A DNA stretch of 64,000 nt from Marsupella aquatica (lineage: Eukaryota; Plantae; Marchantiophyta): NCBI GenBank assembly GCA_973895155.1, contig OZ316894.1, forward strand, positions 13,883,580 to 13,947,579, written 5' to 3'. The notes under the pieces were generated by a model that saw only the letters and a program-made list of their open reading frames with translations, was not told the origin of the DNA and made no database searches. Both the position numbers and the translations under genes were made by a program. This document shows, piece by piece, positions 6,682-60,181 of the stretch (position 1 is its first letter; every line of letters begins with the position of its first letter).

Positions 6682-6856
6682 TGTTCCACATTAACAATGC
6701 TCTCCTTCATTACATTGTTAATACTTTATACATATGGCGGTTGCCATGAGGTGGTTGCCTAAGTAGTTAGGGTTATAACCTCCTTGGGTTATAGTTCTAA
6801 CCTTAGTTATATAGGTGTGGTAGACTTAACCTATGGTAAACCTATGGTGTGCAACA
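6682..6856 (-). repeat. Copia 3' LTR
   Basis: Direct repeat of 12689-12863. Confidence 0.95.
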
Positions 6857-9583: not shown

Positions 9584-9638
9584 GGGTGCCTCTGGTTGAG
9601 GTTGTGTTGCAATGGGGGGGGGGTAAGTTGGTTCTTCT

Positions 9639-12673: not shown

Positions 12674-12688
12674 ATCGTGCTGATAACG
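12674..12688 (-). promoter_or_regulatory. Copia PBS (internal tRNA-Ile type)
   Basis: CGTTATCAGCACGAT directly follows the 5' LTR instead of a TGG... site. Confidence 0.75.
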
Positions 12689-12863
12689 TGTTCCACATTA
12701 ACAATGCTCTCCTTCATTACATTGTTAATACTCTATACATATGGCGGTTGCCATGAGGTGGTTGCCTAAGTAGTTAGGGTTATAACCTCCTTGGGTTATA
12801 GTTCTAACCTTAGTTATATAGGTGTGGTAGACTTAACCTATGGTAAACCTATGGTGTGCAACA
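12689..12863 (-). repeat. Copia 5' LTR
   Basis: Direct repeat of 6682-6856. Confidence 0.95.
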
Positions 12864-18455: not shown

Positions 18456-18469
18456 CCTGCGGATTTCTT

Positions 18470-20011: not shown

Positions 20012-20334
20012 CTCCTAGTGTAGGTCGTTGCAGCGATTGATGGCTTCCCGATGCCGACGATTCTGTCTTCGCAAAACAGAAGGTCATCGAGCTGATTAGC
20101 AGTAGGAGTCCACAAGAACTCAGCCTTGATGAGTTCTTCTCCTAAGAAGGCAGACTTATGCAGCTCCCATAGTCGAGCGAGTTCCTGCCGTTCTCGAGCT
20201 GCTCTCTCCGGTTCTTCGTCCTCGTAAGTCCTGACGTACTCACCTGCCCGTTCGAACAGGCATCCCCAAAAATGTGCCGCCTGATTGACGTTGCTCATAC
20301 CCTCCTTGAGTCGATCGTTGGTATCTGTTCCCAT
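20008..20334 (-). CDS. Small upstream ORF of the LTR-like unit
   Basis: 108 aa, overlapping the next ORF start. The homologous HFWGCLF...EYV.TY segment is at ~33400-33600 in copy 2. Confidence 0.5.
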   Translation of the reverse strand: MGTDTNDRLKEGMSNVNQAAHFWGCLFERAGEYVRTYEDEEPERAARERQELARLWELHKSAFLGEELIKAEFLWTPTANQLDDLLFCEDRIVGIGKPSIAATTYTRS

Positions 20335-37100: not shown

Positions 37101-37590
37101 TACCTGCTGATATTTCATTGTTGGGGGCAGATCATTTGCATTGTGTTGGCCCCATTGATTTGGTGATTGCTGGCTGGTTGGCCATGTCAGGGCCAATCTA
37201 GAGCTAGCGTTGGACATGGACTTCCCCGTGGACTTCATGATCCACGCTCTACATTGTTTTGGGAGATGTTACGGGTGCTACGTCATCTCCAGCTATATCA
37301 AAGACAGTCTCCAACATACATTTTGGAGAATGTGCCATTGTTAGGTGATGATCATAGTCGGATTGTGGCCAGTGTTCACCAGGTGAGGTCTTGGATTGGA
37401 CCTGTTGTGTTATTGGATGTTGCACGTGGGGGTTCTCGTGCACATTGTCCACGCTTGTGGTGGACTAATTTGATCCCATGTGAGGTGTTGAAGCGCGCAT
37501 TTGATAGCATCCCACACTCACCAACCTTAGTGGTGGATGATATTTTGGATCCAGGGCGTCGTGCACAGGGTGTGACCCAACCTGATAGAC
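34142..37590 (+). mobile_element. DNMT-Gypsy copy A internal region (PBS, gag, protease, C5-methyltransferase), truncated
   Basis: PBS TGGTAGCAG at 34143-34151, gag from ~34193 with knuckle remnants (CWTCGGDH; HCGALGHTKDRC), VLLDTGAQ at ~36190, MTase motifs at 36880-37590. Confidence 0.9.
36881..37590 (+). pseudogene. DNMT3-like C5 cytosine methyltransferase domain (copy A)
   Basis: LLDLFGGI (motif I), YVETD (II), GPIDLVIAGWPCQG (IV), YILENV (VI), RAHCPRLWWTNL (VIII). Confidence 0.9.
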
Positions 37591-39864: not shown

Positions 39865-41388
39865 AACATACATTTCAAGCCAGCACAAACATGTGCCAGA
39901 CTTGGATCTATTGTACCATCAATGTTGGGAAGGTGACATGGTGCACAGTTGCGCACATGATCCTTCCAAACCATACCATCGCATCCCTCCAACATCAGGA
40001 CACCAAAAGGAAACACTTCACGCACACGTAAGATTGTCCGGCCTGCGGTCACATCAAGTGTCGTGGGTGTTGTCTGCTACAAATAAACATAATCACCAGG
40101 ATGAAATCATCGAATGCTTGCACGGTAACCTCCTCCACGAATAGTGGCATACCTCAAAGTATCACGATGTTGGGCAATGGCAAGGTTGTCAAAAGCCATG
40201 GGCATCACTCTCTGAATATCCGTGCTCTCTCTGAACACACCTTGACCCAAACATCAGGATCATCCAAGTTCACAACTGATGCAGCATCACGACGAATAGC
40301 TGCTGGCAAATCTGGCTCTCTACCATAGAGCAAAAAGTAAGGTGAGAAGGATGCAAGTGATGCTTGCCGACTGAAACGGTAGCCCATAGCTAACCAAGGT
40401 AGCTGAAGATCCCAATCTCCCAGATGACCAACTTGCAAGCCATACTTACGCAATCCTCTCTTCACAGTTTGCACAACTCTCTCAGCTAATCCATCTGCCT
40501 CAGGATGATCACGAGAGATAGTACGATGATCAATCAGAGCTTGTTTACACAAACTCCCAAAATCTCCACGGAACTCAGTTCCCTGATCAGTCAACACCTC
40601 AGCTGGTGCTCCAAAATGACTGAGTACGCGATCCAAAAATGTAGTAGCAACTCCTCCACTGGCTTTATCTAGCAACGCCACTAGCTCAATCCACTTGGAA
40701 AAATGCTTCACCATGACCAAAATATACTGATTATGGCGTTGGGTAAGACGTAATGGACCAGCAAAATCCAAACTCCAACGATATCCCAAACCCATGATCG
40801 GTAACGAGTGCAACTGGGAAGTGGGAGCATTAAATGATGCTCTCACTCTATCACATACCACACACTTAGCTATCAACTGCTGGACATGAGTGTGCGTACC
40901 ACGCCACCAATACTGTGTCTACAGCAAGCTATAAGTGCAGCAAGCTATTTGTGTGCATGTCGCACCAAATGTACTCGTTGTGATGGTTTTGGTACCACCA
41001 ACACCCTACCATCATGCAGTACTCTCAAAAGATGGTTTCTCTCCCATTGAAACCTCTTGGCTCTCTGTAGAACCCTGTCGCGTTCTTTGGCATCAACACT
41101 GCCAACAATAGAACCACTACGCAGATATTCCAACACCCTCACATCATTGTGAATATCTTGTTGTCCAAAAGTTACCTCACCAACATCCACATCTGAAGAC
41201 TCATCATCCACTCCATCCAATGAGGTAGAGTCCACAGATCCACTGTATGCTGGCACCCAACAAAGAAAGGCAGATGCATGCCATCCTGGCACCATCTCCT
41301 TATTTGACTCATCATGCCATCTGGCTCCAGTCTCATCCTGCTGACTGGTACATGGATTGCGGCTTAATCCATCTGCATCCAAGTTCAC
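39865..41388 (-). pseudogene. Gypsy integrase
   Basis: HAH...YWW...CVVCDR zinc finger, RWSLDFAGP, FSKWIE, LTDQGTEF, HPEADGLAERVV, SPYFLLYGR. Confidence 0.92.
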
Positions 41389-41640
41389 TTTTTCAGCCTA
41401 TGCACCACCTGGAAATCATACTCTTGTAACAACAATGCCCATCGTGCAAGCTTCCTTGTAAGCTTGTCAGATTCCATTAACCACTTAAGAGGCTGATGAT
41501 CAGTGATCAAGGTGAAGGGGTTACCAAACAAGTAGCAACAAAAGTGTGCAACAGCCCACACTACTGCCAAACACTCTCCCTCATAAGAGCTATCCTTAGC
41601 CTTTGCTGAATTGTTTGATCTACTGGCATAAGCCACAACA
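41385..41640 (-). pseudogene. Gypsy RNase H, C-terminal half
   Basis: VAYASRS, EGECLAVVWAV, LITDHQPL, LARWALLLQEYDF. In frame with RT once the LINE is removed. Confidence 0.92.
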
Positions 41641-43980
41641 TAGTGAAGGCTTGGTTTGACGAGGATTGTGCTAGAGCAAGGATGCAAGCAAGATCACATT
41701 CAAGGGAAAAGAGACTTTTGGCATTCACTATGTACAAGAACTTCATCAAACACAAGAAGAGGTGCTTCTTGAAGAGTCATCAACAATCACTATGTGAGGA
41801 GTTCATCAAACATCCAAAACGTTTTTGGGAGAGAATGCAATCAGGCAAGACTACTCCCCCCTTGGATCACCAGGACCTGGTAACCTATGTCACATCCTTG
41901 TATTTCTTTCCAGATGCTAGTGGCATGCCTTTGCCCCTTGGGGACACCATTCAGTTTACAGAGAGGGAGGTGAAGGTGCATCTTTCCCACATGCAACATG
42001 GGAAAGCTAAAGATCTGTTGGGCCTGAACTTGGAGCTTCTTTTGTGGGGAGGACCCTCTTTACTAACAAACTTGGTGCATGAGTTGAATCAAGCAATGGC
42101 TTTAGGTTTACCTAAAGCTTGGATGACCAGAAGAGTGGTGCCTATCTTCAAGGCAGGCAACAAGGACGATGTGCACAACTACAGAACCATCATGGTAGGC
42201 AATACTTTTGCTAAAGTTTTGGGAGGACTACTTGAAGCCAGATTAAGCTCTTGGTTGGAGAGTGAGATGAAAAGGGCACCTTCACAAGCAGGTTTTAGGA
42301 GAGAATTCAGCACTATGGATCACATTCTCTGCTTGAGGGTGTTGTGTGAAAAGGCCAAATCTCCACATAAACCATTATTTTGCTTGTTTGTGGACTTCTC
42401 CAAGGCCTTTGACAAAGTTTCCCGATCCAAGCTTTGGGATAGGATGGTGGAGTTGGAAGTGCCTGAAGAGCTCAGGTTGGCTGTTTCTAAATTGTACCAA
42501 GAAGTGCGCATCAAACTTTCAAAGGAAACCTCTGAAGAAATCTGGAGCACTCTTGGGGTGATCCAAGGTTGTCCTCTCTCACCAACTCTCTTTGGCATCT
42601 TCATTGATCAGCTACACAACATTTTGGAGGAGCATGGTGGAGTTGGCACTCAATTGGGTAGGTTTGTCCTCCAACTTCTTATATTTGCAGATGATGTGGT
42701 CCTACTTGCTCATGCTCAAGAAGCTTTGCAAAGACATCTCAATGCCTTGGAGGAGTTTTGTCAAGCAACAGGGATGGTAGTCAACCTCAAGAAGACCAAG
42801 TGTTTGGGCATTGGCACACGACAAAATCCAGAGCTCTACTTCCAAGGGAATCTGGTGGAATTTGTGAGGACCTACAAATACCTTGGGGTGGAGTTCTCTC
42901 AAAACTTGAGTTGGGCCTCATGTGTAAAATCTAGGGCTGCCAATGGGTACAGAGCTTTTTATGCATTCATGAACAAATGCAAAAGAGCTGGTCTACACAC
43001 TTGGAGGTTAAGGAAACATCTCTTTGGAGCTTTGGTGAAACCAGTCATTCTTTATGGAGCACCAATTTGGGGAGCAGGTGTGTCTAAATCTGGGTGGCAA
43101 CAGATTGAGGGGCTGCAAAAGCTATTTCTTGAGATGGAGCTTGGGATCAAGTCACAAACCCCATATGCACTTACACTTGCAGAGGCAGGCTTGTTTCCTT
43201 TGGAGGTGGAGGCACTCTTCCACACACTCAAATACATCATGCGTGTAAGAGAGTTGGAGGAAAACAGATTTCCTTTTCATGCCTTGCGCTCATCTTCAGC
43301 TAAAGGGTGGTATGCAGATGTGTGCAGGTGGGCCCATGCTTGGGATTTTCCTGAACATGAATGGCCAACACACCCAACCAAGCTAAGAGCAAAACTTGAG
43401 CAAAAGGCTTTGCACAAACTTTGGCATGAACCTAGCCCACGGCAGCAATACTACATGAGAGATGTGAACCCCATGAAGAAATATCGAGAACAAGAATACT
43501 TATCTAGCACTATCTCAGTACAACTTAGACAACTTATTGCTCAGTATAGACTAAGCTCACACCACCTTGAAGTAGAACAAGGGAGATGGAAGGATATTGA
43601 CAGGAAAAAGAGGGTTTGTCAACTATGTGATAGCTCTAGTATAGAGAATGAATATCATGTATTCATTGCTTGCAAGTTTTATGAGGGGGTTAGGATGGCA
43701 TCTCAAATCTTGGTGAAAGATTTGTATGCATTGTTTGGTCTGCCCCCTCAGCAACTTGGAAGATATATCTTTGCGGTGGATAGGGAAAGGAGAATAGGTT
43801 TGGAAAATCTTTCAGGGCTCTCTAGGTCCATAGTTTCTTTGAGGACATAGTTGTCCTCTTCTGAGCAATCTCTTTTGGTTGCTCTTTTCTTTGATTGCAT
43901 TGTACTTTACTTTTTGTGGCAGCTCCTTTGACTTTCATGGTCCCGGAGCTTATAATACATTACCATTACCATTACCATTA
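41641..43980 (+). mobile_element. 5'-truncated RTE-X-like LINE with (CATTAC)n tail
   Basis: Splits the Gypsy RNase H between EFV and VAYAS. Imperfect TSD CCACAACA (41633-41640) / CCATAACA (43981-43988). About four CATTAC repeats at the 3' end. Confidence 0.85.
41643..43850 (+). CDS. Non-LTR reverse transcriptase, uninterrupted 735 aa, endonuclease missing
   Basis: NYRTI, QAGFR, FVDFSKAFD, GVIQGCPLSP, LIFADD, YKYLGV, and C-terminal RLSSHHL...CQLC...ENEYHVFIAC. Confidence 0.9.
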   Translation: MKAWFDEDCARARMQARSHSREKRLLAFTMYKNFIKHKKRCFLKSHQQSLCEEFIKHPKRFWERMQSGKTTPPLDHQDLVTYVTSLYFFPDASGMPLPLGDTIQFTEREVKVHLSHMQHGKAKDLLGLNLELLLWGGPSLLTNLVHELNQAMALGLPKAWMTRRVVPIFKAGNKDDVHNYRTIMVGNTFAKVLGGLLEARLSSWLESEMKRAPSQAGFRREFSTMDHILCLRVLCEKAKSPHKPLFCLFVDFSKAFDKVSRSKLWDRMVELEVPEELRLAVSKLYQEVRIKLSKETSEEIWSTLGVIQGCPLSPTLFGIFIDQLHNILEEHGGVGTQLGRFVLQLLIFADDVVLLAHAQEALQRHLNALEEFCQATGMVVNLKKTKCLGIGTRQNPELYFQGNLVEFVRTYKYLGVEFSQNLSWASCVKSRAANGYRAFYAFMNKCKRAGLHTWRLRKHLFGALVKPVILYGAPIWGAGVSKSGWQQIEGLQKLFLEMELGIKSQTPYALTLAEAGLFPLEVEALFHTLKYIMRVRELEENRFPFHALRSSSAKGWYADVCRWAHAWDFPEHEWPTHPTKLRAKLEQKALHKLWHEPSPRQQYYMRDVNPMKKYREQEYLSSTISVQLRQLIAQYRLSSHHLEVEQGRWKDIDRKKRVCQLCDSSSIENEYHVFIACKFYEGVRMASQILVKDLYALFGLPPQQLGRYIFAVDRERRIGLENLSGLSRSIVSLRT

Positions 43981-43988
43981 CCATAACA

Positions 43989-45142
43989 AACTCATTCCCC
44001 TCATGATCCTTTTGAGTCTGCACTGCTCCAAGTCCTACTCCACTCCAATCAATGTGTAGCTGAAATGGTCTGCCTGAAATGGGTCTTCTCAAAATAGGGG
44101 ATGATGCCAACCTTTGCTTCAACTCCTGAAAGGCATGCTCCTGGTCATCACCCCAAATCCATTCTTGATCCAACTTAGTGAGTATGGTCAAAGGTTTAGC
44201 AAGCTGGCTAAATCCTTTAACATACCTCCTGTAGTAGCTCGCCAATCCCAAGAATGCACAAACTCTACTCACATCAGTAGGACAAGGAATCTGTGTAATG
44301 GCCTCCACTTTAGTCTGCTGTACACCCAATCCCCCTAGGTATATAGTGTGGCCCAAATACTCAATCTGGTCTTGGAAGAACTTACACTTGCTAGGATGGA
44401 GCTTCAACCCATGTGCTCTCAATCTCTCCAACACAATCTGCAAGTGCTGCTGATGTTCTTCTACAGTAGAAGAATAGACCAAAATATCATCAATATAACA
44501 TCTGACAAAATCCAAACCTACAAGGATTTGATCCATGACTCTATGGAACTCAGCTGGTGCATTCTTCAACCCAAATGGTAAGAATAACCACTGATACAAA
44601 CGATCTTTGCCATAAGAATCAATCCCCCAGAATGTTGTCTTGGACCTGTCAGCATGCCTAATTGGAAGTTGATGGTACCCTGCCCTTAGATCCAATGAAC
44701 TGAAAACCTTTGCATGCCCCACAGCATCAAAGATCTCCTCAGGTGTGGGCATGGCATATCTATCAGATTTTGTCTGGCGATTAATGGGTCTGTAATCACC
44801 ACACATGCGCCTATCTGTGTAATTGCCATGCACATCCTTCTTGGCTGGCATCACTATGGCAGATGCATACTCCCCATATGAAATCTCCACCAATCCAGCC
44901 TCCAACAAATCTTGAGTTTTGCTTTGAATCAGAGCTCTCTCCATGTCACTGTAACGGTATGGCCTACGAAAGATTGGCGCATCACTAGCCAATTCAATCT
45001 GAATACCAGGACCCTTTAATGTCCCCAAATCCTTCATGCAAAATGCAAAACAATTCCAGTAACTCTTTAGGAATTGATGCATGCGACGTCTCTCCTCCCT
45101 TGTCAACTTAGGGCCAAGTTGTGGTTCCCAACTCTCCACCAA
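43989..45142 (-). pseudogene. Gypsy reverse transcriptase and RNase H start
   Basis: RMCGDYRPIN, LDLRAGYHQ, PFGLKNAP, YIDDIL, FLGLASYYRRYV. Confidence 0.95.
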
Positions 45143-45389
45143 ATCCCTAATATCTTTTTGTAGAGTAGAAGAGATAGCCGATGATTGCTATTTAGCAGTA
45201 GATTGAGCAGTCCCTTCCTGCTCAACAATCTGTCCAACCTTGGCCAATCCTGCCATAGGTCCATGGACCGTCTGCTCGCCCCCAGCTGTGGTCAGTACTG
45301 TCTTAGTGGACCGCAAGCTCACCAAGGGACAATTATTAATTCTAGCAAAGCGCACCCGCAACTGTTCAGCTACTCCCAAGCTAATAATC

Positions 45390-46345
45390 CAAGTCAAACA
45401 ATTCAGATCCATTGCTTGACCAAGAACCTGGCGCCACAAACCCTCTGACATAGAGGCAACTGCAGTGGTGCCAGTCAAAAATCCCATAGCACGCTCCCTC
45501 GCATCAGTAGTAGGCTCCAATAACTGCTGGAGAGCTGTGTCCCACACAAGTCCAGGGCCACTTGCTCTGAATGCATATGAAGCAGAGTGGCTTACAAGAG
45601 TGGGTAATGCACAACGTGGGCGTCCAACTGCATTGACCACTGCCAATGGAGGTCTATCAGGTTGGGTCACACCCTGTGCACGACACCCTGGATCCAAAAT
45701 ATCATCCACCACTAAGGCTGGTGAGCATGGAATGTTGTCAAATGCGCGCTTCAACACCTCACATGGGATCAAATTAGTCCACTACAAGCGTGGACGATGT
45801 GCACGAGAACCCACACGTGCAACATCCAACAACACAGCAGGTCCAATCCAAGACCTCACCTGGTGAACACTAGCAACAATCCGACTACGATCATCACCTA
45901 ACAATGGCACATTCTCCAAAATGTATGCTGGAGACTGTGTTTGATGTAGCTAGAGATGACGCAGCACCCGTAACATCTCCCAAAACAATGCAGAGCATGG
46001 ATCATGAAGTCCATGCCCAACGCCAGCTCTAGATTGGCCCTGACATGGCCAACCAACAATCACCAAATCAATGGGGCCAACACGATGCAGATGATCCACC
46101 CCCAGCAATGAAATATTAGCAGGTAGTGCATGCTGATAACCACGAACAACATCCACTGGCAACAACTATGGATATCTATCCACCAACATAGCCACATGTC
46201 GCAATGAGACCCTCTGTGCTGTCTCATCTGTCTCCATATACAAATAACAACGCACATGAATTCCTGCCTAGAGAACATCAGCCAATCTAGTGCTAAGCCC
46301 ACCAAAAAGATCCAACAAACAAATACCCTCCGGTGGATACTGCCA
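45390..46345 (-). pseudogene. DNMT3-like C5 cytosine methyltransferase domain (copy B, complete motif set)
   Basis: LLDLFGGL, GPIDLVIVGWPCQG, YILENV, RAHRPRL*WTNL, RERAMGFLTGTT...RQVLGQAMD (motifs IX-X). Same reading frame as the RT ORF. Confidence 0.92.
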
Positions 46346-46599
46346 AGCAATAGAAGTGGTATCCAATGGTGAAAGAGTCACAGGTCCATCTGCAAGAGAC
46401 TGCTATGGTCCTGACTGTGGTGTAAAAGCATGACGCCATGCATCATGTACCAATCGTGCGGTTGCTTGTGGCAAGGCCTGTGTAGTGCCCACACTGGTGG
46501 CACAACACTGCCAACAGGTAATCCTCGCATGATATGAGACTCCTCCAATGATCAGCCTATTCATTAAAAGTGTATTTTCTTTTGTTCACAAATCAGTCC

Positions 46600-46682
46600 T
46601 GAAATGTACACTTTTATGTCCCCAAATGTACACTTTACGAAGCCCAAATGTACACTTTTTGATACCTAAATGTACACTTTAT
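46600..46682. repeat. Left subterminal repeats AAATGTACACTTT
   Basis: Four copies, followed by a TA-rich microsatellite at ~46697-46780. Confidence 0.85.
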
Positions 46683-46970
46683 AGGCCAAATCTTATTAGT
46701 ATTATATTAATATATTATATTATATTATAATAGTATTATATTATTATATTATATTATATTATAATAGTATTATATTACTTATTAGTTCACAAAGAACCAT
46801 GGGATAGAGATCATATTTGTAAAAACATTTCCACACAAAGAAGCCCAGGCAAGGACCATTGATTGATAATGTGTGAAAATAATTATATACAATTGTGTCC
46901 AAACTCACAATGAATATCCAGGGCTGGCACCCATTTTTACTATCTAATGGGCTTAACATGAGTCAGATAT

Positions 46971-48104
46971 CTAAACAAAGTGCTCCTTAAAATATTTATT
47001 TGAGCACGTGCCTTTGTCTCCTTTACTATCTACCCTAATGTCACGGCTGCAACTCCCTTTATCTTCAGGGAGATGAAATTTGGTGGTGTTGTTCTTAGCT
47101 GCTATAATCTCCCGCAAAAAGTGTCTGGGATTTTCTCTATACAGACCTGAATATTCGCGTCCTACAAATGATCTAGCAAGTGAGGTGACAAGTGCATCGT
47201 CAAGTTCCACCTCAGGACGTAAGCTACATATACGGTGCTTCACAGCCCAAGGAATCTCATTGCTATTGAGGTCCAGCACACTATGCCTATACTGTGACTT
47301 CCAAATTTTTGCTGCACATCTCTTACTAAGTTGATCATAAGTAATCTCATTTTTTGCCTTGTCTCTCTTAATGTGCAATAGAGACCACTTTGGAGAGTTT
47401 AGGAGAAGATAATAACGAATATCACTTGCATGTGACAGTTTCTCAAGACATGGCCAAAGAATTGTTAGAAGAAAATTGTCTCCACGATTGGCATGCGTGT
47501 AGGGCACTAGAAATAGTCCAGTCATGTTTGGGTTAGCAAATGCCTTCAAGGGGGAGTCATCCACAAGGAGTGTGTTGGTTTCATCATATAGATTTCCAAA
47601 TGCACTCCATACCACCCAAAAATCCTTCAATAGCACATTTGCCTTTCCATTTGTAATGTCACGCCTTTGAATGCCTGTGTCAAAGGCTTCCACCTGTGTG
47701 AATACAAACTTCAGTTTCAACCGCTCCTCAATTGTGAACATCATGTTCAACATTTTCACTGTTCGCGGCATCCCAGCACATGTCCAAATTGCAACGTCAA
47801 ACCGGTCAAAAACCAACTTTAGAAACTCATGGAGCCCTGGCCTCTCTGTATACATGCGACTAGTTCCATTTGATCTATCCCAATGCACTCCACTTGAGGT
47901 GACAATATTTCTAGATGTGCCCTTGCTTTGGAATTCAATAGAATCCCAAAGTATTTTATTAAGGTCCAAAATCAGCAACTTCCACTTGACGGGACCAGGT
48001 CTCGATTCTGCAAGTGCACCAAACACCACTCTCAGAGAAAAGACCAAAAGTGAACTTTGGATTAGGATTGTCTCAGTCCAAAAATACAAGACAATGGCTG
48101 ACAA
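46971..48104 (-). CDS. FCP1/NIF-like HAD phosphatase domain protein (cargo)
   Basis: KLLILDLNKIL (DxDxT-like position), ERPGLHEFL..VFDRFDVAIWT, LLKDF, NTLLVDDSP.KAFANP. The true start is probably spliced. Confidence 0.8.
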   Translation of the reverse strand: MSAIVLYFWTETILIQSSLLVFSLRVVFGALAESRPGPVKWKLLILDLNKILWDSIEFQSKGTSRNIVTSSGVHWDRSNGTSRMYTERPGLHEFLKLVFDRFDVAIWTCAGMPRTVKMLNMMFTIEERLKLKFVFTQVEAFDTGIQRRDITNGKANVLLKDFWVVWSAFGNLYDETNTLLVDDSPLKAFANPNMTGLFLVPYTHANRGDNFLLTILWPCLEKLSHASDIRYYLLLNSPKWSLLHIKRDKAKNEITYDQLSKRCAAKIWKSQYRHSVLDLNSNEIPWAVKHRICSLRPEVELDDALVTSLARSFVGREYSGLYRENPRHFLREIIAAKNNTTKFHLPEDKGSCSRDIRVDSKGDKGTCSNKYFKEHFV

Positions 48105-48147
48105 AAAAGAAAATTAACCTACATACCATTTTTAGAAGCCTCACAAT

Positions 48148-51100
48148 GGGCCTGACCTCCGTGACAGGAAACAGTAAACAGGAAAAATCATAACAGGAAA
48201 AATCAAGGAAGATAACAGGAGTTTTTGCGCTCACGTTGTCATAATGGGATAAGTTTACTAGCGTCGGGCGCTAGCCAAAATACAATGGTACGTTTTCATA
48301 TTAGTTGCAAGGGTTACAATTAGCAAATTACATCACATGTTAGGCAAACAAAATGTGCATGGTTTATTGGAAAATATGTAATTTATATTTTTTCAGTGGA
48401 TACTTAACATTTTGGCAAGGGTTATCATTAACACCCCCTCCCGACGCTAGCCAAAATACCATCATAGTCTTTACATAGTGACAAGATTTACAATTAATAT
48501 ACAACAAATTCATATGTTTGTTGAACGCTTACAAAAATGCAATATACTTCTCCTATAATCCAAGTGCGTATTTCTTGTATTTGGCCAAATCTGATCCTCT
48601 TTAAATTCTAAGGAGGAGACTTAAAGTGTACATCATCATCAAGTTTATTGAAAGAGTGCTTACGTGAGGGGCACAGTCTTGGCCAAAAAAATCTTCATTT
48701 GGAAGATTTTTTAATCTAATTTCTAATTAAATCAAACCTTCAATATAGGAAATCTCATGGATGTTTTTGTAATTTCTTGAACATAAATATCAATGTATGG
48801 ATATAATTTCATATGGGTAACAAAAATTTATGAACCCATGTGACGGATATACACACAAATGGGATCAAATTATAAAATCAAGTGTGATTTGAATCTTTAT
48901 TTCGCAAGAAAATCTGGGACAATATTAATTTGACTAGTGTTTAAATTGTCTTTTTCAAACCACAAACATCATTATATTTTTCAAGTTGTTGATTCTATAT
49001 ATGTGGGTTGTTGTTATTTTCATAAAATTTCTTAGAATTACTTCTAAATTATTTTCATAAGAAGGTGATGTGCTTAAGAAAATGAGAAAAGTTTTGGGCT
49101 ACAATAGGATTAGAGTTTGACGGTCTCTAGTGACCCCAAAATATCTAGTATAGAACAAGGAAAATATGATAGTAATGCCATACTCTACTATACAAAATTG
49201 GCATAATTTGATGTGTTTAAAGGTCATGAAGATTAAACTATTGGATTAAATCTAGGAATAAATCCCATAATAGCTCCAGATGCAAAAGAAATTGAGACAA
49301 ATTGAATATATTTATATGATATAATCCATAATTTAGTACCTAATTGCTATCTCAATAGTCCTAAAATCTTGTGCAGAATGTATAATAGCACTAGGCGCTA
49401 TCATAAATCATATTTATTTGACGTATTGATTGATAAAAGTAATAGGTGCTATCATCAAATGACACATTTATGTGTAAAACATCCATCATTTTTTAAAGAA
49501 AATTTGGCAGAAGAGTTAATTACAAGAAATAATAAACATAAACCCATACAACAAATTTAATAAAAAAGATACAAATGTTACTAGCGTCGGGCGCTGGTAA
49601 TATCCTACTTGGCTTGACCCCTCTAAGAATGATATTATTTTAAGAATTTTTATACAAAAATTGAGCTAAAATTAGTATAAAACATTTAAAAATGTTACTA
49701 GCGCCGAGAGCTAGTAATATTCAACTCACCAAGACACTCCAAAATGACACTATTTTGAGTGTCTTTATGAGTAAAAATTAAGCAAAAAAGGATATAAAAA
49801 TGAATTAACATTACTAGCGCCGGGAGCTAGTAATGTCACACCCACCTAGACCCTCCAAAATGACACTATTTTGAGTGTCTTTATGAGTAAAAATTAAGCA
49901 AAAAAGGATATAAAAATGAATTAACATTACTAGCGCCGGGAGCTAGTAATGTCACACCCACCTAGACCCTCCAAAATGACACTATTTTGAGTGTCTTTAT
50001 GAGTAAAAATTAAGCAAAAAAGGATATAAAAATGAATTAACATTACTAGCGTCGGGAGCTAGTAATGTCACACTCGCTTAGACCCTTTAAAATAACATCA
50101 TATTGAGTATATTTGTGAGAATTTTTTTAGAAAATTGGGCTATAAAAATGAATTGACATTACTAGCGCCGGGAGCTAGTAATGTCACACTCGCTTAGACC
50201 CTTTAAAATAACATCATATTGAGTATATTTATGAGAACAAATTTTGAAAATTGGGCTATAAAAATAAATTAACATTACTAGCGCCGGGAGCTAGTAATGT
50301 CACACTCGCTTAGACCCTTTAAAATAACATCATATTGAGTATATTTATGAGAAAAAATTTTGAAAATTGGGCTATAAAAATAAATTAACATTACTAGCGC
50401 CGGGAGCTAGTAATGTCACACTTGCTTGGACCCTCCATAATAGAACCATTTTGAGAAATTTTTAAGAGAAATTTTTCGCAAAAAATGTAGAAAACAAAGG
50501 AACATTACTAGCGCCAAAAGCTAGTAATGTGACTTTGGCCCAAACCCTCTAGAAAAACATTTTTTTGAGTCTGTGACCTTTAATTATTTACTGATATACC
50601 GCCTATTTCACTAGTAGTATTACCGTTTTATCTCTTGTGTTTGCTATTGTTGTTAAATGCACCAAAGGATATTTTAGAAGGTCATGTAATTTTGCAAGTA
50701 ATAAAGAAATATCTATGTAAATGAGACCTCACCAAAGAGGACTTTTTGTTGGCATTGAGTGCTACTATGGTAATATGAACAAAAATGACTATAGCCTAAA
50801 GGATATATTTTGATAAGCGCCAGGCGCTGATATAAATTTTGGTCAAAAGCAATGGCTCTAATTATCAAATTTATTATAGTAGTTTGTGGTGCTACTATAT
50901 TATATCATCATTTGTAATGTTTTAATGGCTATATTATCACTAATATTATCCAATGTCACGGCTGCTGACCTTGTTACTAGAAAAAAAGAACATAGCATCC
51001 TCTAATGGTCTAAGGCGGTTCAATCAAAATTTACAATATGTCAAACTCTTCATCATTGGTTAGAGCATTCAATGACCAGAGTGTATTGCATTTGATAGCA

Positions 51101-51599
51101 AGAGTATATCTTTTTGCTCACATCACTCTACGTGAGGATGTTAACCTTTGATCAATCCACACATTTACAATCTTCTAGGTAGTACTTTGGAAGATGCATG
51201 GAACCCTTGATATGATGTGCTCTTTTATCGATAGTTTGTCACTACTAGACGTCCAAATCAAAGTACGATTCAATATAATTTAAGTTAGTTTGAGCATGAT
51301 AATTAGGGTGTCTAAAGGGGAATAAACTTTTGTGTTATAATCTTTATATAGTTTTGACGTCGTGCACGATAGTTTTGAGCCTTCATGTGTAGAAAATCTT
51401 TGGCGCTAGTAAAGATTTATGTCTATAATAATTGTATCTGTTACATATATTACAGTTGCTCAGTTCAAATTGTAGTGTAATTTTGGTCCCTAAAGTGGGA
51501 ATTTTCTTTCGGCATTGCGCACAAAACTCCTGTTATCTTTGACCATTTTTACTGTTATGATAATTCCTGTTTACTTTTTCCTATCACGGGGAAAAACCT
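48148..51599. mobile_element. Non-autonomous Mutator-like element (3.45 kb)
   Basis: 9-bp TSD CCTCACAAT (48139-48147, 51600-51608), ~80-bp imperfect TIRs (CCGTGA.AGGAAA.AGTAAACAGGAA...GATAACAGGAGTTTT), AT-rich with no long ORF. Confidence 0.85.
49570..50570. repeat. 116-bp tandem repeat, about 9 units, palindromic core
   Basis: ACATTACTAGC-GCCGGGA-GCTAGTAATGT at 49808, 49924, 50040, 50156, 50272, 50388 and 50502, with variants at ~49575 and ~49692. Confidence 0.92.
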
Positions 51600-51707
51600 C
51601 CTCACAATGTGTAGACGGATATGGAGACTTTAATTGGTGAGCGCATTCTGTGAGACCGAGAAGTATTTTAGATTGATATGAATAAATACAAAGTCAAAGG
51701 CTGAATT

Positions 51708-54700
51708 TCATTCCGAAATAAGAGATCCGTATTCATCAATAATCATGTCAGCACCAAGCTCCTGTTGGATTTCAAAATTGACATCTGAAGTACTTTGTTC
51801 TACCCAATAAGGTGAAGTCCAAACAGGAGTTATCAACCCCAATTCTCCACTCTTATACTCCTCCTTATTGAGAATTGAAGGAGCAGGATCCAATGATATT
51901 TCTTGGCCTCAATTTGGCCCACTTTTCCACACGTAACATCGTGCGTCGCATTCCAATGACCTCCATCCAGTTGATCCAACTCTATTTCCTTTCTTTTTTG
52001 AGAGCGGAAGGACAATAGGACTCCCCGAGTGTGAACGAACGAACACCAATTTTTCATCAGAAGCTGAAAAGAGTGTGTCAGGACAAGTTGAAGCACCTGC
52101 CTGGTTGTCAGCAGCCGTTGATGCATTTCCTCCTGGATTGATTGGAATGTCAGGCAATCCGCCAGTCTCCCCCTCCGTCTCCCCCCGAGTCAATTCTTTA
52201 GTTTCAGCTTCATTTGAATCTCCAAGCCTCATTGCGCCTTCATTGATCAGATTGGTTGAAGAAAGATGATCAAACGTATCAACCCTTGCTCCTTCCAGTT
52301 GCTCCATCTGTCCTCCCGGCGTTGTTGGATTGGGATCATCCTTGTCCAAGTTATCATCAACTTGAACTTCATTGGGCCCCGGAGGGATGTCATCTAAACA
52401 AGATGAACGGTTTGGTGCAAGTCCAATATCATCATCTACATCGTAAGGCTCACCTTGACCAACACGGTCATCCAAATTCTTGACATATGCCTCCTCTGAT
52501 GCCCCTATGCCTTCAGCCACTTTGTCAACAACATCTTCAGACTCAGAACCATCGGATTCAACAACGACAGCTACAGTTGCAACAGTGGTAGCCCATTGTC
52601 GAGAATTTTCAGCAAGTGATTCACAATGAGCTTTAAGTGAGGGAACTCTCTTGCAAAGGTAGGAAGCAAAAGCTTCCACAAAATGCCTCTCGGAGTGAGA
52701 GTCACAATAAACAAAGCATTCCCTATCGCAAAAAAATGATGTCTTCATGACTTGGCCACCGGAGAAAAAATCTAGAACCAAATCTCCCGGTTCTGACAAG
52801 GATTCAATAATCCTTCGGATCATCCGCGTGGGTTTGGCATGAGGATTAACCCACCCTCCGCGACTGCCAACTGTCTCAAATCGAGGGGCCATATTCATAA
52901 TTTTGACGGCCTCTTCCGGGTCCAAAACCGCTTTTAGGTCGTCGTTTTGTGTCCCCCCATCTGATTCCTTAGCCTTCCCCTTTCCCTTGTCGATCTTGCA
53001 TACTTCGTAATCAACATCCTTTGCAGTATACAAGAATTTTGGCTTTGGATAGTTGGGCTTGAAAACTTCATTCCAATTGACGTCTTCATCTTGAGAAATC
53101 CCCGCAAAGATAACTTCTTCAATCCCCCCACCCCAACATGAGTCATGAGGGTGCGGTTGATCATCTCAAGAATAACTCCCATACTCAATGTGAATGGTCA
53201 AAGCTTTCTCTTGTCCCAGTTTACGAAGGGCACCATGGACATTCAATGCAAGTTGTCCAGGATGAACTATTATCGTCAACAATCATGGGATTTTGTGGAA
53301 GCTCCACAATTTATTCAAAGAGAACAAGAATCTCTGCTTCAGTCCATTGTTTTTGCGGAAGCCGGCTAAAATCAACAATGGCAAGAGGGCAGGTCAGAGG
53401 AGCTTCTTGCAATGACTCTGGATCAATGGTCTTCATGAGATCGTCGCTAAAAAATGTAGCCCATGGTAGGGTCCGAGAACGTGATCCTCCGCCAAATTTC
53501 TGGCAGTATATATCATCTAGGCGGAATGCCAATGCCGTCGGCAAGATTGCGCTCTCCCACGTATGATTTGGTTTTAAAAGGTTGGCAAGATAGACCTCGC
53601 CAGCGGCTCTTCGACACCTGCTGAACTCTGAATCAATTGCTAGCATAGGAAGAACCTCCACTACTTTCCCCCAATTAGTATTTGCCGGGAAATTCACCGC
53701 ATCCTTGGTGCAATAGTAGTCTTCAATAAGGGACTTCAGTTTTCGCATGATCTTCACATCTTTGGCCAACTCCTCTATAGATGGCATGTCTGATTTATTA
53801 GAGGCATCTTTCTTTAGCAATACCTTTCTTGACTTCACCCGCGTCAGTATTCTTGTGATGTCTCGTTGTGAGATCAACTCACCATCAAAACAACGACACA
53901 TGGCAACAGTAATTGCTTTTTCAGACTTCTCATTTCCTTCTACCCCAGCTCCATCGGGAAGTTTCCCATCCAACCACAACTGGCATACCAAACTCCATAA
54001 CTCAAAAAGAGCATCGTCCGCAAACAGTAACCAATAAACATTTCGACAATCTTTTCTTCCCATGGTCATTCTTGCAAGAGCCAACCAATCCTACAATTGC
54101 AAAGGAAAGTCTGTTAGTTCTCCATAACTCAATTGTTTGATAGCACTCAGGTGCGGACTGAGACCATCCCACTCCAACACAAAACTAGACAGTATTAGTG
54201 GAAATATTCTATTGAATGTGCATGATTTAGTTTGGACTGGGACCATCCCAGTCCAGAACAAAACTAGACAGTATCAGTGGAAAAATAATCTATTGAATGT
54301 GTATGAATCCATTTGGACTGGGACCATCCTAGTCCAACGCAAAACTAGGCAATATCAGTGGAAATATTCTACTGAATGTGCATGAATCCATTTGGACTGG
54401 GACCATCCCAGTCCAACACAAAACTAGACGATATCAGTGGACAAAGATTCTACTGAATGTGCATGAATCCATTTGGACTGGGACCATCCCAGTCCAACAC
54501 AAAACTAGACGATATCAGTGGACAAAGATTCTACTGAATGTGCATGAATCCATTTGGACTGGGACCATCCCAGTCCAACGCAAAACTAGGCGATATCTGT
54601 GGAAATATTCTACTGAATGTGCATGAATCTACGGTATTGTACCCATCAAGCAGTAACACTTTGTACCTGAAATTTTTGATTGTCTTGAGCGTTTGTTTTG

Positions 54701-55272
54701 TTGTCGCCATGTTTTGGCCGGCTAGGTTTTCCACATTCCACAAATTGTCGCCTAGCATGAACGACTGTATCTTTGAAGCATGACTGAAACACCATCGTGC
54801 TATTGATCGCATTAGATCGCATTGAATGCTCAACTAATATTGACGATGGTGTTCAATGAGATAATATTCTTGACTTTCAAAATTCCAGCTTTTTCGCCAA
54901 TGCTGTCAGCTTGGCATCCTTGTTTGCCCATTCTCAAATCCATCTGGCTGCTCTAGCCGAATGTTGATCGCTAATGGCAAGGAATTGAACCTCGCCCTTT
55001 TTCATGGCTGCTACAAAGTCCCTCCTATCTGATTCTGTGTTGTCATACTGCATTAGGTTTCTATGTTTTGTAGTGTAAGGAATCAAGTCTGCTATGTGTG
55101 GTTCATGCCCCAGATTTCTTATCATGGAATTGGCCACCTCCTTTACATGGTCTGCATTCAACATTCTGTAACAGAGTCTTGCCGACGCAAGGAAAATACT
55201 ATCTACAGGAATAGAAAATATTGAATTGATCCCAAACGTATAATATTGCTCCATTTGTTGCTATGGTGTAGC
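51708..55272 (-). pseudogene. Spliced cargo gene: ParB/Srx-like N-terminus plus N6A/N4C methyltransferase-like domain and acidic tail
   Basis: Exon ~55272-54667 (R.LNADHVKEVANSM...FLAISDQHS). GT-AG intron ~54666-54091 joins KFQ|DWLALARM in frame. HAKP..IRRIIESLSEPGDLVLDFFSGG at ~52755-52845. Confidence 0.7.
54150..54630. repeat. ~79-80-bp tandem repeat (about 6 units) with hairpin TTGGACTGGGA-CCA-TCCCAGTCCAA, intronic
   Basis: Units are directly visible and lie between the GT donor (~54666) and AG acceptor (~54091). Confidence 0.9.
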
Positions 55273-55344
55273 CTAAAGTTTGCGTGGTCTTAAGGCAGAC
55301 CCTAATGTCTACATACAGTTTCATGAAATAATGGAACCTTATAT

Positions 55345-55680
55345 TTGAGTCCAACTTTGGATTAGGATGGTCCGAGTCCAAGTTTGGATTGGGATGGTCC
55401 GAGTCCTAGTTTGGACTTGGATGGTCTAAGTCCTAGTTTGGATTGGGATGGTCCGCGTCCAACTTTGGATTAGGATGGTCCGAGTCCAACTTTGGATTGG
55501 GATCATCCAAGTCCAAGTTTGAACTTGGATGGTCCGAGTCCAAGTTTGGATTGGGATGGTCCGAGTCCAGGTTTGGACTTGGATGGTCCAAGTCCTAGTT
55601 TGGATTGGGATGGTCCGAGTCCTAGTTTGGATTGGGATGGTCCTAGTCCAACCTTGGACTGGGATGGTCCCAGTCCAAAT
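55345..55680. repeat. 27-bp tandem repeat (about 12 units) TTGGATTGGGATGGTCCGAGTCCAAGT
   Basis: Quasi-palindromic units. The last one, TTGGACTGGGATGGTCCCAGTCCAA, is the exact reverse complement of the intronic hairpin. Confidence 0.9.
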
Positions 55681-55796
55681 CCAGAATCGGAGGATCGTAG
55701 TCCAAATCCAAAATTGGAGGATAGTAGTCTGAATCAAAATTTGCATGAGTTTGGTTTTAATCCATTTTTTCAGTGTGCAGGATAATAGGAAAAGGA

Positions 55797-58700
55797 TGTC
55801 TCAAAGGTTTTCTAGGGGCGATGATGTTACCTTGACAATCGATGGTTACGACGTTGGAAATGGGACAGTTCAAAAGACAGATCCGCGAGAGAGTGTTCAA
55901 AATATTGTGCTGGGAGAGAATCGAATTGGGGTTCTCATTGAGAAGGCCTTTGGTGAGACTAGGAAGCTCCCTTTTCCAATGCCTAGGGCAGAAAATCTTC
56001 ATGATGCCATTGACTCATGTGTCATCTGGGATATGTCATGTGCATATCGATCTGCGGATAAGATTACTCAAAAACGCATCAGTATTGGTAGTTGTTTGAC
56101 TCGAAAAGATAACAACATCCATAATTTTGCAAATGTAGAGGAGGATGCTTTGACCACCCTAAGGCCAGGCGATGAGGTTGAAATATTTATCTCTGGCCAT
56201 TGTGTGGCCTTTGGAGTTGTTTTCAAGATCGATCCAATGGAGAGATGTCATAACATATTACTCGGTGAGTCTCGGGTTAGTGTAAAAGTCACAGATGTGA
56301 TTCATGGTAGTAAGACTTTACCTTATGCACATGGTGGAGCTGCAACAATTGAAGAGGCAAAGGGCTCCTGGGTTCTATGGGATGTGGTTGACGTCCACAA
56401 TAAAGTATGGAATGTTGATATTGATGGGAGCAACAAATCTTCCTCTAAGAAGCAGAAGGACAAGGCAAATTTTGTTTCACAGTCTTGTTCGGCGAACACC
56501 ACGGACACTAAGTGTGACTATTTTCATCGGGCAAACTGGATGTCAGAGTTGGTTGAACTCTACATTGGTTTGGATCGAACCAAAATGGTTGCCACTGGAA
56601 CGATCACTGTCCCTCAAGTGACAGCAGCAGTTGATGATGAAATTCTTGGTGATGACCATGTTGGGATTGTTGTGAAAGATGTCGTGGCAGCACAATACTT
56701 TCCCAACATCCACAAGGGAGTAGTGATTTTGATTCGATGGCGGATTGATTCAACAAAACTAGTTGCAAATGGAAAAAATTTGTCAGACATTTTGGTGGAA
56801 GGTTCTGAGAGGATGGAATCAATGGATAGGGATGAACTCAATGCGGATGTAAGTGATAGAGGAGTACTGCGTTCAAGGCCGTACAATTTTAACAAGAGGA
56901 ATCAAGTAGATCCGAATGAAAAGAAGAGGAGGTTGTTGGAAACCAAGGCAATTTCAAAAACAACAGAGGTGTCAATTGATGACGTGAAAAGAGAAAATTG
57001 TTGCAAGTAAAAATGTTGTCTCATTATGCCAAGGGAAAACATCGAAGATATTAGGATGGAATTTCATGGGATGTCAAGCGAGTCAAAAACGTCACACATT
57101 TTCAACCTCTTTCACTATAGAGAGGATGATGTTCGTGATAAGGGACACCATGTTCTTAAGGGTATGGTCGTATGCAGACATGCATTTGCAATTATCCACG
57201 GTTTTAGCCACACCAAATATTATGATTACAAAAGGAGATATGTGGAGGGTTGAAAAATTGGGTTCCATGGCAATACGGGCTTGATGAAAACAAGGGCAAA
57301 TACCTTGCATGCACGAGCTCTGTTGGAGGCTTTTTTGACTCGAAATGCAGAGCCCATGCCTCATATGCCTTATGGAGGGACACATGGGACAGACTCTACT
57401 GAGTACCGTCTTCCGACGTGTTACAAGAAGCTAGAGATTCTGGAAGATGTGAGAACAAAGATGAAGGAAGAAGGGCTTCCTCCTGTCACAGAGAATACTC
57501 TCTACAAGATCTGGAGCAACTCATTTGCAAACTTCAGTTTTCATAAAGATGGTGCATTTGCCAAGTGTACTCTTTGTTGTGAATATAAAACAGTTTGATG
57601 CGAGAAAGAAGGAAAAAAGAACGTGTTGAAATTGAAGAAAAGCGAGCGCAACATCTTCGTGAGCACATGTCACATAGATATGTTTACTACGCTCATCGAG
57701 TGATGGCCAAACAACACCCAGGAAAATATCTTTGCATTATTCATGACAAGATGGATCAAGCAAAGACATGGATTCCAAAAATGGTTAGTACTCCTAAATC
57801 TCTTTCGGGTCATGGAATGCCGCTACCTATTGCTCTCACAGGGATGTTGACCCACGGGAGGGATCCAGGAGTTTATGCACACTTTAGTGTCACTGGCCTT
57901 TGGCCAGGAGATGCTGATTTCACAGTGACATCCTTGGCTAAGTGTCTTCGAGACCTTGAAGAGTACAATGGAGACAAGACAGGTGACATGTTGGATGGCC
58001 TTCATTGGGAACCTCGCAGACCTTTCTTTCAAGCCCTACTTGACTTTGAAGCATTTTTGACGGGTTATTTGGAACCAAAGAATATACCGATGAATAGGTA
58101 TATTGGTTATGAAGATGGAGTTGAGAGTCGGACTGAGACCGTCCCAAACCAACAAGATGAGGATGAAGGAGAAGACATGCAAGGAGAGCAAGGCAGTCCA
58201 TCGTTCAAGCCCTTGCCAAGGCACCTAACATTGCAGATGGATAATTCAGCAAAGGACAACAAAAACCAGACTGTCATGGCATTTTGTAGCGAGCTTGTGA
58301 GTAGAGGAGTATTTGAAACTGTTCAAATGTCTTTTCTAATGGTTGGTCATACGCACGAAGATGTTGATGCACTCTTTTCAAAGGTATCATATCAAGTTCA
58401 GCACAAAGAAGTTGCAACCCTCCTTGCTCTTATGGCAGAGGTATGGGAATGCGAGAGCATTCATCCAGTTCCCAGATTGATACAAGAAGTTGCATCTTAC
58501 AAAGAATATCTTCAAAATTTCAAGGTGAAAGATATTCAAGGTCACTCAAAACCTGTATCATTTCTTTTCTCTATGAGAGATAATGTACCAATATTTCAGT
58601 ACAAGTCCCATGTAAAGCAAGCTTGGGCTCCAGTTGGTGGAAGGTGCATTTGGGCAACAGATCTGACAACAAATTCTCTTCTTTTACCTAGTGGAGAGCC

Positions 58701-59557
58701 CTTAGCTAAATCCATTGGAGAGATACACAAAAAATCTGAAGAGATTATCCCATTTCTTAACAAGTACCTTGATTTTTTGAGAAGGAGTTGCACTGATGAG
58801 ACATCTATAGCATATAAGGAAAGATTTCCTCTTGTGAAATATTGGGAGAGAATTGTGGAGTTGTTGACAAATGGGCTCGCACTAGAAGGGGAGGGAAGTA
58901 CTCAATTTCCCTTGAAAAACAGATTTTGGCCTAAGACTAACCACGGCACTGGTTACAAGGTCAAGCAACCGGAACAAAGTGGTCCTCCAAGTGAAGATGA
59001 GGAGAATGCAGAGATAATGTCTCTTCAAAATGAGGTCTTGGAAGGGATGGAAGATCAAGCAACACCATTTGTTGGATCTCGAGCTGAGAGAGAACAAGGA
59101 CGATGGATTCCTTTACAGGATATTTGTGAAGGAAACTTTGTATTTCTTCGACCCGAGGATGATTGGGAGAATAAAAGTGGTGGAGGTCATTTCTGGTTGG
59201 TGAGAGCTTTGGGTTAATTTGGTGGACCCAAAGCATGAAGTCCCAACTACATCTTCAACAAACCCTTCTCTGCCTCAACAGTATGCTCCAATGTTCCCAA
59301 TTGAATGGTGGAGGCCTAAACACTCTAAACTTGATGTGACTGAGAGTGCGCGGTATCTAAATTGTTTCATGTCCACTAAGACATGGGAACGAGATCCAGG
59401 GTTTGGTGAGAATACTCAACATTGGCAGTATGCAAATTCTGCAATGTATGGTTTTAAATTTGGAATGAAAGAAGAAAACATGGCGGGCAGAGGTTTGAAG
59501 ATCCCTCGAAATGTTCTACAAACTGTCCAAAATTATCTTCAAAGGATGGACAAGTAG
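55797..59557 (+). pseudogene. Sola-like DDE/DDD transposase (~1250 aa reconstructed)
   Basis: ORFs 55745, 57026 and 57281 share a frame, separated by single stops. 57595 and 59219 are frameshifted. Motifs CTLC, IIHDKMDQ, LQMDNSAKDNKN, FLMVGHTHEDVDALFS. Confidence 0.8.
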
Positions 59558-59809
59558 ACTTAGTTGTTAGAAGCTATAATAATTAAATAGATAGTTACTA
59601 GTTTTTATGTAACTAAGATAGTCACTCATTCAAACATAGTAATTTACGTAGTTATTTACTATTCTAATAGTTTTAATTTGATACTATCTCCTCATTTTCT
59701 AAACTTTTGATCATTATATATGAATATGAATGTTTGCTTTTTCTACATAATTAAAAATATTTTTCTATTCATTCATTTCTTTTAAATGATTATAAGAAGA
59801 GTTGGTAGG

Positions 59810-60140
59810 CAAATGTACACTTTTTAGGCCAAATGTACACTTTGTTGCACTAAAAGTTACACTTTTTAGACCAAATGCACTTAAATATACACTTTTTAAG
59901 CCAAATGTATGCATTTTTCACTCAAATGTACACTTTCTAGGCCAAATGTACTCAAATATACACTTTTAAAGTCAAATGTACCTATTTTGATGTTCAAATT
60001 TACACTTTTCATTGCCCAAATGTACACTCTTTGGGCCAATTGTACACTTTTCTATCCCCAAATGTACACTTTTCATTGGCCAAATGTACACTTAATTTTC
60101 CAAGCCCAAAAGTACACTTTTCATTGCCCAAATGTACATA
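59810..60140. repeat. Right subterminal repeats AAATGTACACTTT
   Basis: More than ten variant copies, matching the left-end motif. Confidence 0.85.
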
Positions 60141-60181
60141 AATCAAATAATAATACACTTTTAATGAATAGACTGATAATG

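Follow-up and report, generated by a model that had tools for sequence, protein, structure and literature searches.

ParB-methylase accessory genes have recently been put forward, from algal examples and without experiments, as encoding chromatin modifiers of a new class carried by transposons. A giant Sola1 element with a divergently transcribed ParB-methyltransferase (ParB-MTase) gene, Sola1-1_Ec32, has already been published in Ectocarpus (PMC12477816), and so have the accessory genes of red-algal Plavaka elements; what is said here of these and of the other cited reports holds for the parts of them that were available. The present analysis concerns a DNA transposon of the liverwort Marsupella aquatica that occupies positions 46551 to 60177 of a stretch of 64,000 nucleotides, hereafter the window (assembly GCA_973895155.1, contig OZ316894.1, positions 13,883,580 to 13,947,579). 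A preliminary description had proposed a possibly undescribed cargo-bearing family, a claim that we do not retain since the algal elements were already published. Our analysis leads us to regard the element, with a probability of about 0.6, as a decayed copy of a multi-copy cut-and-paste family of about 10.2 kb with a Sola1-like transposase, in which both cargo genes are borne by the family and in which the ParB-like/methylase-fold protein would be a self-binding regulator and not an active methylase. Within this reading, we are highly confident of the structural account of the element, self-binding by a pseudo-enzyme stands at roughly even odds, and a role for the third gene, which encodes an NIF phosphatase-like protein, is graded lower still.

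The limits of the element are given by an empty site. Its host is a Ty3/Gypsy-type retroelement (window 40205-46550 and 60178-~63900, minus strand), of which an inverted paralogue, copy A (35555-37590, plus strand), lies in the same window and is 88-92% identical. Since copy A reads without interruption through the insertion point, with one AATG at the junction, both the ends and a 4-bp target-site duplication (TSD) are fixed; a 2-bp AT TSD with CAG termini was ruled out, the empty site being compatible with AATG alone. Two features of Sola DNA transposons are thus present, namely the 4-bp TSD (AATG at either end of the element but only once in the empty site) and terminal inverted repeats (TIRs), which are 26 bp long here (11-1124 bp reported in Sola) and differ at one position. 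Furthermore, a near-palindromic 12-bp motif occurs 15 times in the window with at most one mismatch, four times at the left and 11 times at the right, and all these copies are confined to about 370 bp of the two element ends. They are likely transposase-binding sites. The boundaries of the preliminary description (TIRs, TSD and subterminal repeats), as well as its statement that the whole unit inserted as one, are therefore upheld.

The length that it had given, 13.6 kb, was inflated by a nested segment of 3.46 kb that arrived later than the Sola1-like element. This segment is non-coding, has 67-nt inverted arms at 85% identity and contains a tandem array (116 bp, 6.7 copies) that includes a 29-bp palindrome. 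Its 10-bp TSD and long TIRs fit a non-autonomous Mutator-like element (MULE), TSDs of MULEs being 7-12 bp long (PMC10741241). Contigs from all four public runs examined here bypass it (joints 48138/48140/48141 to 51600/51617/51603), and its sequence occurs in the runs at low depth, in pieces that are about 10% divergent. Having its own TIRs and its own TSD and being skipped by the contigs of all four runs, it was ruled out as cargo. Since the contigs join ~48140 to ~51600, the NIF gene immediately follows the MTase-like gene in the family unit, which measures about 10.2 kb.

Six public runs contain parts of the region 50600-60177; contigs of four of them were aligned to the element and contigs of four (three shared) to its left end. 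In all four of the latter, depth is zero in the flank and begins at 46551. In run X3, 14 contigs run out of the left TIR between 46551 and 46556 and continue into flanks whose agreement is only 0.5-0.62, and therefore many insertion sites are represented. Contigs of the consensus type in this run have depths of 323-431 at the left end, 372 and 225 at the NIF-to-MTase joint, 431 in the MTase region, 383 in the ParB part, 455 in the 5′ part of the transposase and 363 at the right end, compared to 9-18 for contigs of the nested insertion and of TIR-flank junctions. In the public runs, the transposase, the two cargo genes and the element ends all occur at high copy; although contig depth is not copy number, these values suggest that the three genes occur together in copies numbering in the tens. 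The TIR is far deeper than the interior, and a joint from 46589 to 59882, with 33 other letters between, found in runs X1 and X2, indicates a short (about 370 bp) non-autonomous derivative. Pack-MULE-type capture involves a non-autonomous element with a 9-11-bp TSD and fragments of single-copy host genes; the liverwort element has a 4-bp TSD, its own transposase and whole-gene cargo at high depth. That the cargo, as initially thought, belongs to the transposon family and is not a one-off capture is supported for both extra genes by their depth in the runs and by the junctions of the TIR with many unrelated flanks.

Table 1. Features of the Sola1-like element and of its insertion site (positions in the window)
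Feature	Position	Strand	Remarks
Left TSD copy, AATG	46547..46550	+	Single AATG in the empty site of copy A
Left TIR, 26 bp	46551..46576	+	Contig depth begins here in four of four runs
Left subterminal array	46602..46691	+	22-bp period, four near-palindromic 12-mers
NIF/HAD phosphatase-like open reading frame (ORF)	46971..48113	-	380 codons stop to stop, intronless, open
Nested non-autonomous MULE-like insertion	48139..51609		Body 48149-51599; 10-bp TSD 48139-48148 and 51600-51609
3′ exon of ParB/MTase-like gene	51708..54090	-	Helical region, predicted beta-class amino-MTase fold, acidic linker, conserved C-terminal domain; stops and frameshift
Predicted GT-AG intron	54091..54666	-	Tandem array (~80 bp, 5.9 copies) of the palindromic motif
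5′ exon of ParB/MTase-like gene, putative ParB-like domain	54667..55260	-	Stops and frameshift in the window copy
Array of the palindromic motif, 27 bp, 12.3 copies	55347..55740		Between the divergent ParB/MTase-like and transposase genes
Sola1-like DDD transposase pseudogene	55796..59557	+	DUF7869 core; acidic motifs at ~57745, 58240, 58354-58368
Right subterminal array	59810..60138	+	Eleven 12-mers
Right TIR, 26 bp	60152..60177	-	25 of 26 bases identical to the left TIR
Right TSD copy, AATG	60178..60181	+

The ParB/MTase-like gene lies inside the TIRs on the strand opposite the transposase, as in elements of the Sola1-1_Ec32 type, and matches N6_N4_Mtase (Pfam, E 1e-6). When a 188-aa MTase piece was searched by word index against longer proteins, none of 262 candidates was confirmed; the full HMMER search then retrieved 42 relatives, including intact proteins of 830-1009 aa. 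Against the longest of these, P0165 (1009 aa), the exons that flank the predicted intron join in phase, two pieces of the 5′ exon being 33% and 46% identical to its N-terminal part. A single-sequence fold prediction was uninformative (pLDDT, the predicted local distance difference test, of 33). The AlphaFold model of P0165, built from a 49-row alignment, is confident for about residues 260-760 and 937-986; its best fold matches are PvuII, RsrI and CcrM, with structures of the rotifer N4CMT lower, and the MTase-like profile matches RsrI (E 5e-7). According to this model, the protein would have the permuted Rossmann fold of beta-class N4C/N6A DNA methyltransferases, with a C-terminal motif I for binding S-adenosylmethionine (SAM). 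In the window copy, the 3′ exon reads DFSR at the predicted motif IV site and DFFSGG at motif I. Among the family rows that cover motif IV, several of which are near-duplicates, D[FL]xR is found in 19 of 19 and [DNS]PP[YFW] in none, the Asp and the Arg three places on being invariant. The DFFSG of motif I is kept in 22 of the 35 rows that cover it; compared with the prokaryotic pattern DPFxGSG, this motif lacks one residue. The Pro-Pro-aromatic part of motif IV positions the flipped base in DNA methyltransferases. The gene is therefore MTase-like, as previously described, with a predicted beta-class fold, but the canonical catalytic motif is absent from all 19 rows, and the modelled protein is likely a pseudo-methylase. 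Orthology to the Marchantia methylase DN4MT1 was rejected, as the family has no SPPY motif; this was judged without direct sequence comparison.

The N-terminal domain falls in the Atlas nearest to eukaryotic clusters (0.95), including DUF3723-bearing proteins, and next to a ParB_N cluster (0.91). Its SGQHS-type motif resembles the DGxHR of ParB/DndB. One palindromic motif builds both the 27-bp intergenic array and the ~80-bp array of the intron, and these arrays flank the ParB-coding exon; they are candidate binding sites of the ParB-like domain. Apparent splice acceptors precede both divergent genes (window 55260-55796), and the 27-bp array may be located inside, or between, 5′ introns and a common promoter. 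This array also forms an open 9-residue repeat when read on the minus strand. In the remainder of the protein, the helical region had no Atlas neighbour above 0.78, and residues 937-986 of P0165 (window 51711-52000) form a small, conserved and confidently folded beta-rich C-terminal domain that belongs to no known family and may be a second module for binding DNA or chromatin.

The transposase matches DUF7869 (Pfam, E 2e-44). Two stops and two frameshifts interrupt it in the window, and its five ORF pieces tile intact relatives end to end at 43-62% identity; in these relatives, such as P0227 (1307 aa) and P0234, one ORF encodes the whole protein of about 1300 aa. Among the listed matches, the best from named species belong to Calypogeia fissa (68% over 67% of the query) and to Riccia sorocarpa (86 of the 120), which by itself points to a liverwort or another bryophyte as the probable host. 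Three conserved Asp-bearing motifs (HDxMD, DNxxKDNKN-like and GHTHEDxD) are found in the window copy and in aligned full-length relatives, consistent with a transposase of the DDD type (three Asp), the catalytic residues being putatively among them. Around the second Asp, 24 ungapped positions (82-105 of 124) of the Sola1 RNase H hidden Markov model (HMM; supplement of PMC5751038) score about 31 bits, with a register set by eye and no null; HMM positions 5-56, which cover the first-Asp region, have no visible match. Comparison with the other Sola profiles covered Sola2 positions 7-32 and Sola3 positions 17-42. The former Sola-like assignment stands for the TSD, the TIRs and the DDD transposase; as the second-Asp region fits part of the Sola1 profile and the first-Asp region has no visible match to it, we call the transposase Sola1-like and not Sola1. 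The transposase profile had no match among PDB sequences, none of five candidates in viral contigs was confirmed, and the two stretches confirmed among 101 candidates in metagenomes are the same decayed relic found twice.

The third gene matches the NIF family over the whole profile (PF03031, positions 1-160 of 160, E 7e-15). Its best PDB match is UBLCP1 (3shq, E 2e-10); the NIF domain and the minus strand of the preliminary description are therefore confirmed, but the protein is closer to UBLCP1 than to the FCP1 that it named. DxDx(T/V) is the catalytic motif of FCP1/SCP/NIF phosphatases; it is absent from the window copy, where motif I reads DLNKI. Since the first in-frame ATG falls after motif I, the gene probably needs a 5′ exon. 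Although the transposase and the MTase-like gene are broken in the window copy, the NIF frame has remained open there. None of three candidates for this ORF in viral contigs was confirmed.

Cut-and-paste mobility is deduced from the anatomy of the element; the other steps that we infer are as follows. The DDD transposase of about 1300 aa would bind the subterminal repeats, excise the element and insert it with a 4-bp stagger. The divergent accessory protein of about 1000 aa would bind, through its ParB-like domain, the palindromic arrays of the shared promoter region and of its own intron. Its catalytically degenerate MTase fold, with the SAM-binding half kept, would hold the palindromic DNA, which could thereby be shielded from host methylation, be marked for transcription or recruit chromatin factors, like the anti-silencing by VANC in VANDAL elements. 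At the weakest step, the NIF-type protein might also be an accessory factor, whose target would probably be a nuclear phosphoprotein, unless it is a phospho-binding pseudo-phosphatase. The window copy later took the MULE-like insertion and lost both large ORFs. On a broader view, liverwort Sola1-like transposons would carry an anti-silencing kit of disarmed enzymes, with a ParB-guided pseudo-methylase that blocks or redirects host DNA methylation from a palindromic promoter array and a NIF-type (pseudo)phosphatase that acts on Pol II or proteasome-type phosphoproteins, and would be a vehicle spreading prokaryote-type N4/N6 methylase folds in a plant lineage that uses N4-methylcytosine (4mC); we consider this extension unlikely.

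Further evidence on the association of the genes comes from Riccia sorocarpa, in which four of the six MTase-like genes found sit 2-6 locus tags from a DUF7869 gene, compared to chance rates of 3.6-5.5% within six tags and 6-9% within 10 (P 2e-5 to 8e-4, with 27,000 genes assumed, a 6-tag window picked post hoc and transposon clustering uncontrolled). Several observations weigh against the reading that we prefer. In Riccia, two of the MTase-like genes are 94% identical but the transposases beside them only 33%, and therefore at least one of these adjacencies is not cognate; furthermore, for two of the six genes no transposase is listed up to 40 tags away. Cargo was absent from the metagenomic relic L001/L002, the one related locus obtained with flanks. 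Each of the six public runs contains less than half of the words sampled (best 0.47), no single contig reaches from one end of the element to the other, and the contigs of the aligned runs include no second full-length copy with another TSD. The register of motif IV was itself placed by inference, the global profile alignment being gapped there. The ParB-like N-terminus has no match in Pfam, PHROGs or PDB and is modelled below pLDDT 50. The ParB assignment draws on Atlas features and a motif resemblance and is a plausible lead rather than a result; the earlier ParB-like label has the proximity to ParB_N in the Atlas in its favour and no backing from the domain databases. Finally, the mechanism as it concerns binding, silencing and phosphatase activity consists of predictions from sequence and model, which also counts against it.

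The invariance of the Asp and Arg of D[FL]xR in all 19 rows, together with the well-kept SAM-binding half and a complete beta-class fold predicted at high confidence, could instead point to an active but non-canonical enzyme that methylates cytosine at N4 or adenine at N6 in the DNA of the element itself and uses D[FL]xR as its catalytic motif. Eukaryotic clades with unusual strand-4 motifs are known (Iyer et al. 2016), and 4mC is in use in liverworts, where the Marchantia DN4MT1 has TSPPY. However, the Pro-Pro-aromatic part is missing from every one of these rows, motif I is shortened, and inactive MTase domains have a precedent in transposons (DIRS1), so that we regard an active enzyme as unlikely. 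The protein might also serve transposition, as a ParB-like clamp that pairs the ends or holds the excised element and has no part in chromatin control. ParB proteins load on inverted repeats (bioRxiv 10.1101/2025.02.11.637652), and the accessory gene and the transposase have a promoter region in common. However, the palindrome arrays are internal and surround the first exon of the accessory gene, the ends having a different repeat; the short derivatives (46589 joined to 59882) have lost everything except the ends; and for many Riccia transposases, no MTase-like gene is listed nearby (six MTase-like matches versus 135 transposase tags, 7996 candidates scored). Such a clamp seems quite improbable to us.

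The NIF gene is more ambiguous. With the ParB/MTase-like gene as the true accessory gene, it could be a Pack-type passenger, a captured and retro-processed host gene of no service to the element: it is intronless, lies at the distal end and has DLN in place of DxD, no NIF neighbour was found outside the public runs (no homologue search was made for this gene), and neither published algal element, Sola1-1_Ec32 or Plavaka, is described with a phosphatase gene in the available text. However, NIF is high-copy in four of four runs, at a depth nearer the transposase core than the MTase region, all four show it directly joined to the end of the MTase gene, and its frame has stayed open although both other genes are broken in the window copy; the passenger status is thus doubtful, though it deserves to be kept in mind. 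By contrast, it is very improbable that the whole cargo is a nesting accident, in which high-copy elements of unrelated kinds landed in a single ordinary copy of Sola. The window is indeed a nest of elements and the internal 3.46-kb segment is exactly such an insertion, but neither cargo gene is bordered by a long TIR pair in inverted-repeat and self-comparisons of the window, the depth in X3 is level over ends, cargo and transposase and drops about 30-fold over the true nested insertion, and the layout matches that of Sola1-1_Ec32. We therefore retain the family-borne pair of cargo genes and, at the strengths given above, the self-binding pseudo-methylase.

The host of the insertion carries a methylase of another type: the segment between its protease and its reverse transcriptase is a C5 cytosine methylase (PF00145, E 7e-7) with a PCQ motif, which bears out the earlier remark that the transposon had landed inside another MTase-bearing element. 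This retroelement, present twice in the window, is very high-copy, since contig depth over the covered stretch is greatest in its flanks. Gypsy elements that carry a DNA methyltransferase have been described in Klebsormidium, in a report whose available text mentions no land-plant case (PMC5890265). Within the host, between reverse transcriptase/RNase H and integrase, a 743-codon reverse-transcriptase ORF is found on the opposite strand (window 41619-43850, plus strand) and is probably of the LINE (long interspersed nuclear element) type. Elsewhere in the window, 181-bp direct repeats that are 99% identical (6677-6856 and 12683-12863) surround a copia-type pol (8094-12071) and are probably the long terminal repeats of a young copia element; several diverged tandem copies (65-85%) of a GC-richer unit (16083-26818 and 33381-33967) contain coiled-coil ORFs of no clear Pfam family.

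The literature searched, which left aside Repbase, Bao 2009, reference 50 of PMC12477816 and the bioRxiv supplements including Bostrychia Table S6, contained no account of the liverwort element of the window, and no land-plant case, no loss of the catalytic motif and no NIF cargo in a DNA transposon. A land-plant version makes the proposal of ParB-methylase chromatin modifiers testable, as genetics and methylomes exist for Marchantia and Riccia. It also complicates this proposal: in the family, the fold and the SAM-binding half are kept whereas the catalytic motif is absent, and selection may thus act on binding rather than on methylation.

Among known systems, the Marchantia DN4MT1 and the rotifer N4CMT resemble the accessory protein in that a beta-class amino-MTase fold that originated in prokaryotes is found in a eukaryote, but they are host genes with an intact SPPY motif, shown activity and no ParB-like domain. 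The likeness to VANDAL/VANC of Arabidopsis (PMC10398659), in which a transposon-encoded protein binds non-coding repeats within its own element, is a functional analogy: VANDALs belong to the MULE superfamily, their protein is unrelated, and the anti-silencing shown there would have to be inferred here. With the Sola superfamily, exemplified in bryophytes by Sola1-1_PPa of Physcomitrella, the element shares the DDD transposase, the 4-bp TSD and the TIRs, and the available text of the review mentions no cargo (PMC10741241). The Plavaka (EnSpm) elements of Bostrychia and their genes PAG1-3 (bioRxiv 10.1101/2025.02.11.637652) are closer in content, being giant DNA transposons with an accessory PF01555 methylase and a ParB-like protein, inverted-repeat tandem arrays beside the ParB-type PAG3 gene and, for PAG3, the same proposal of self-binding. 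However, their transposase belongs to another superfamily, the MTase (fused to SET in PAG2) and ParB (fused to a 2-oxoglutarate oxygenase in PAG3) are in separate genes, and no NIF gene is described in the available part of the preprint. Sola1-1_Ec32 (PMC12477816) shares with the liverwort element the transposase with a divergent ParB-MTase gene and, again, the self-binding proposal; this likeness between a brown alga and a liverwort is one of description, not of sequence comparison. The algal element is 21.5 kb long with a 282-bp imperfect TIR and AACCG termini, whereas the family of the window has a unit of about 10.2 kb, a 26-bp TIR and ATCAG termini. Its MTase is “predicted to produce” 4mC or N6-methyladenine, whereas the liverwort family has no DPPY/SPPY motif, and the available text mentions no phosphatase gene there, unlike the window element with its NIF gene. 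Within the literature searched, the land-plant lineage, the family-wide loss of the catalytic motif and the third, phosphatase-like gene are what this element adds to these systems.

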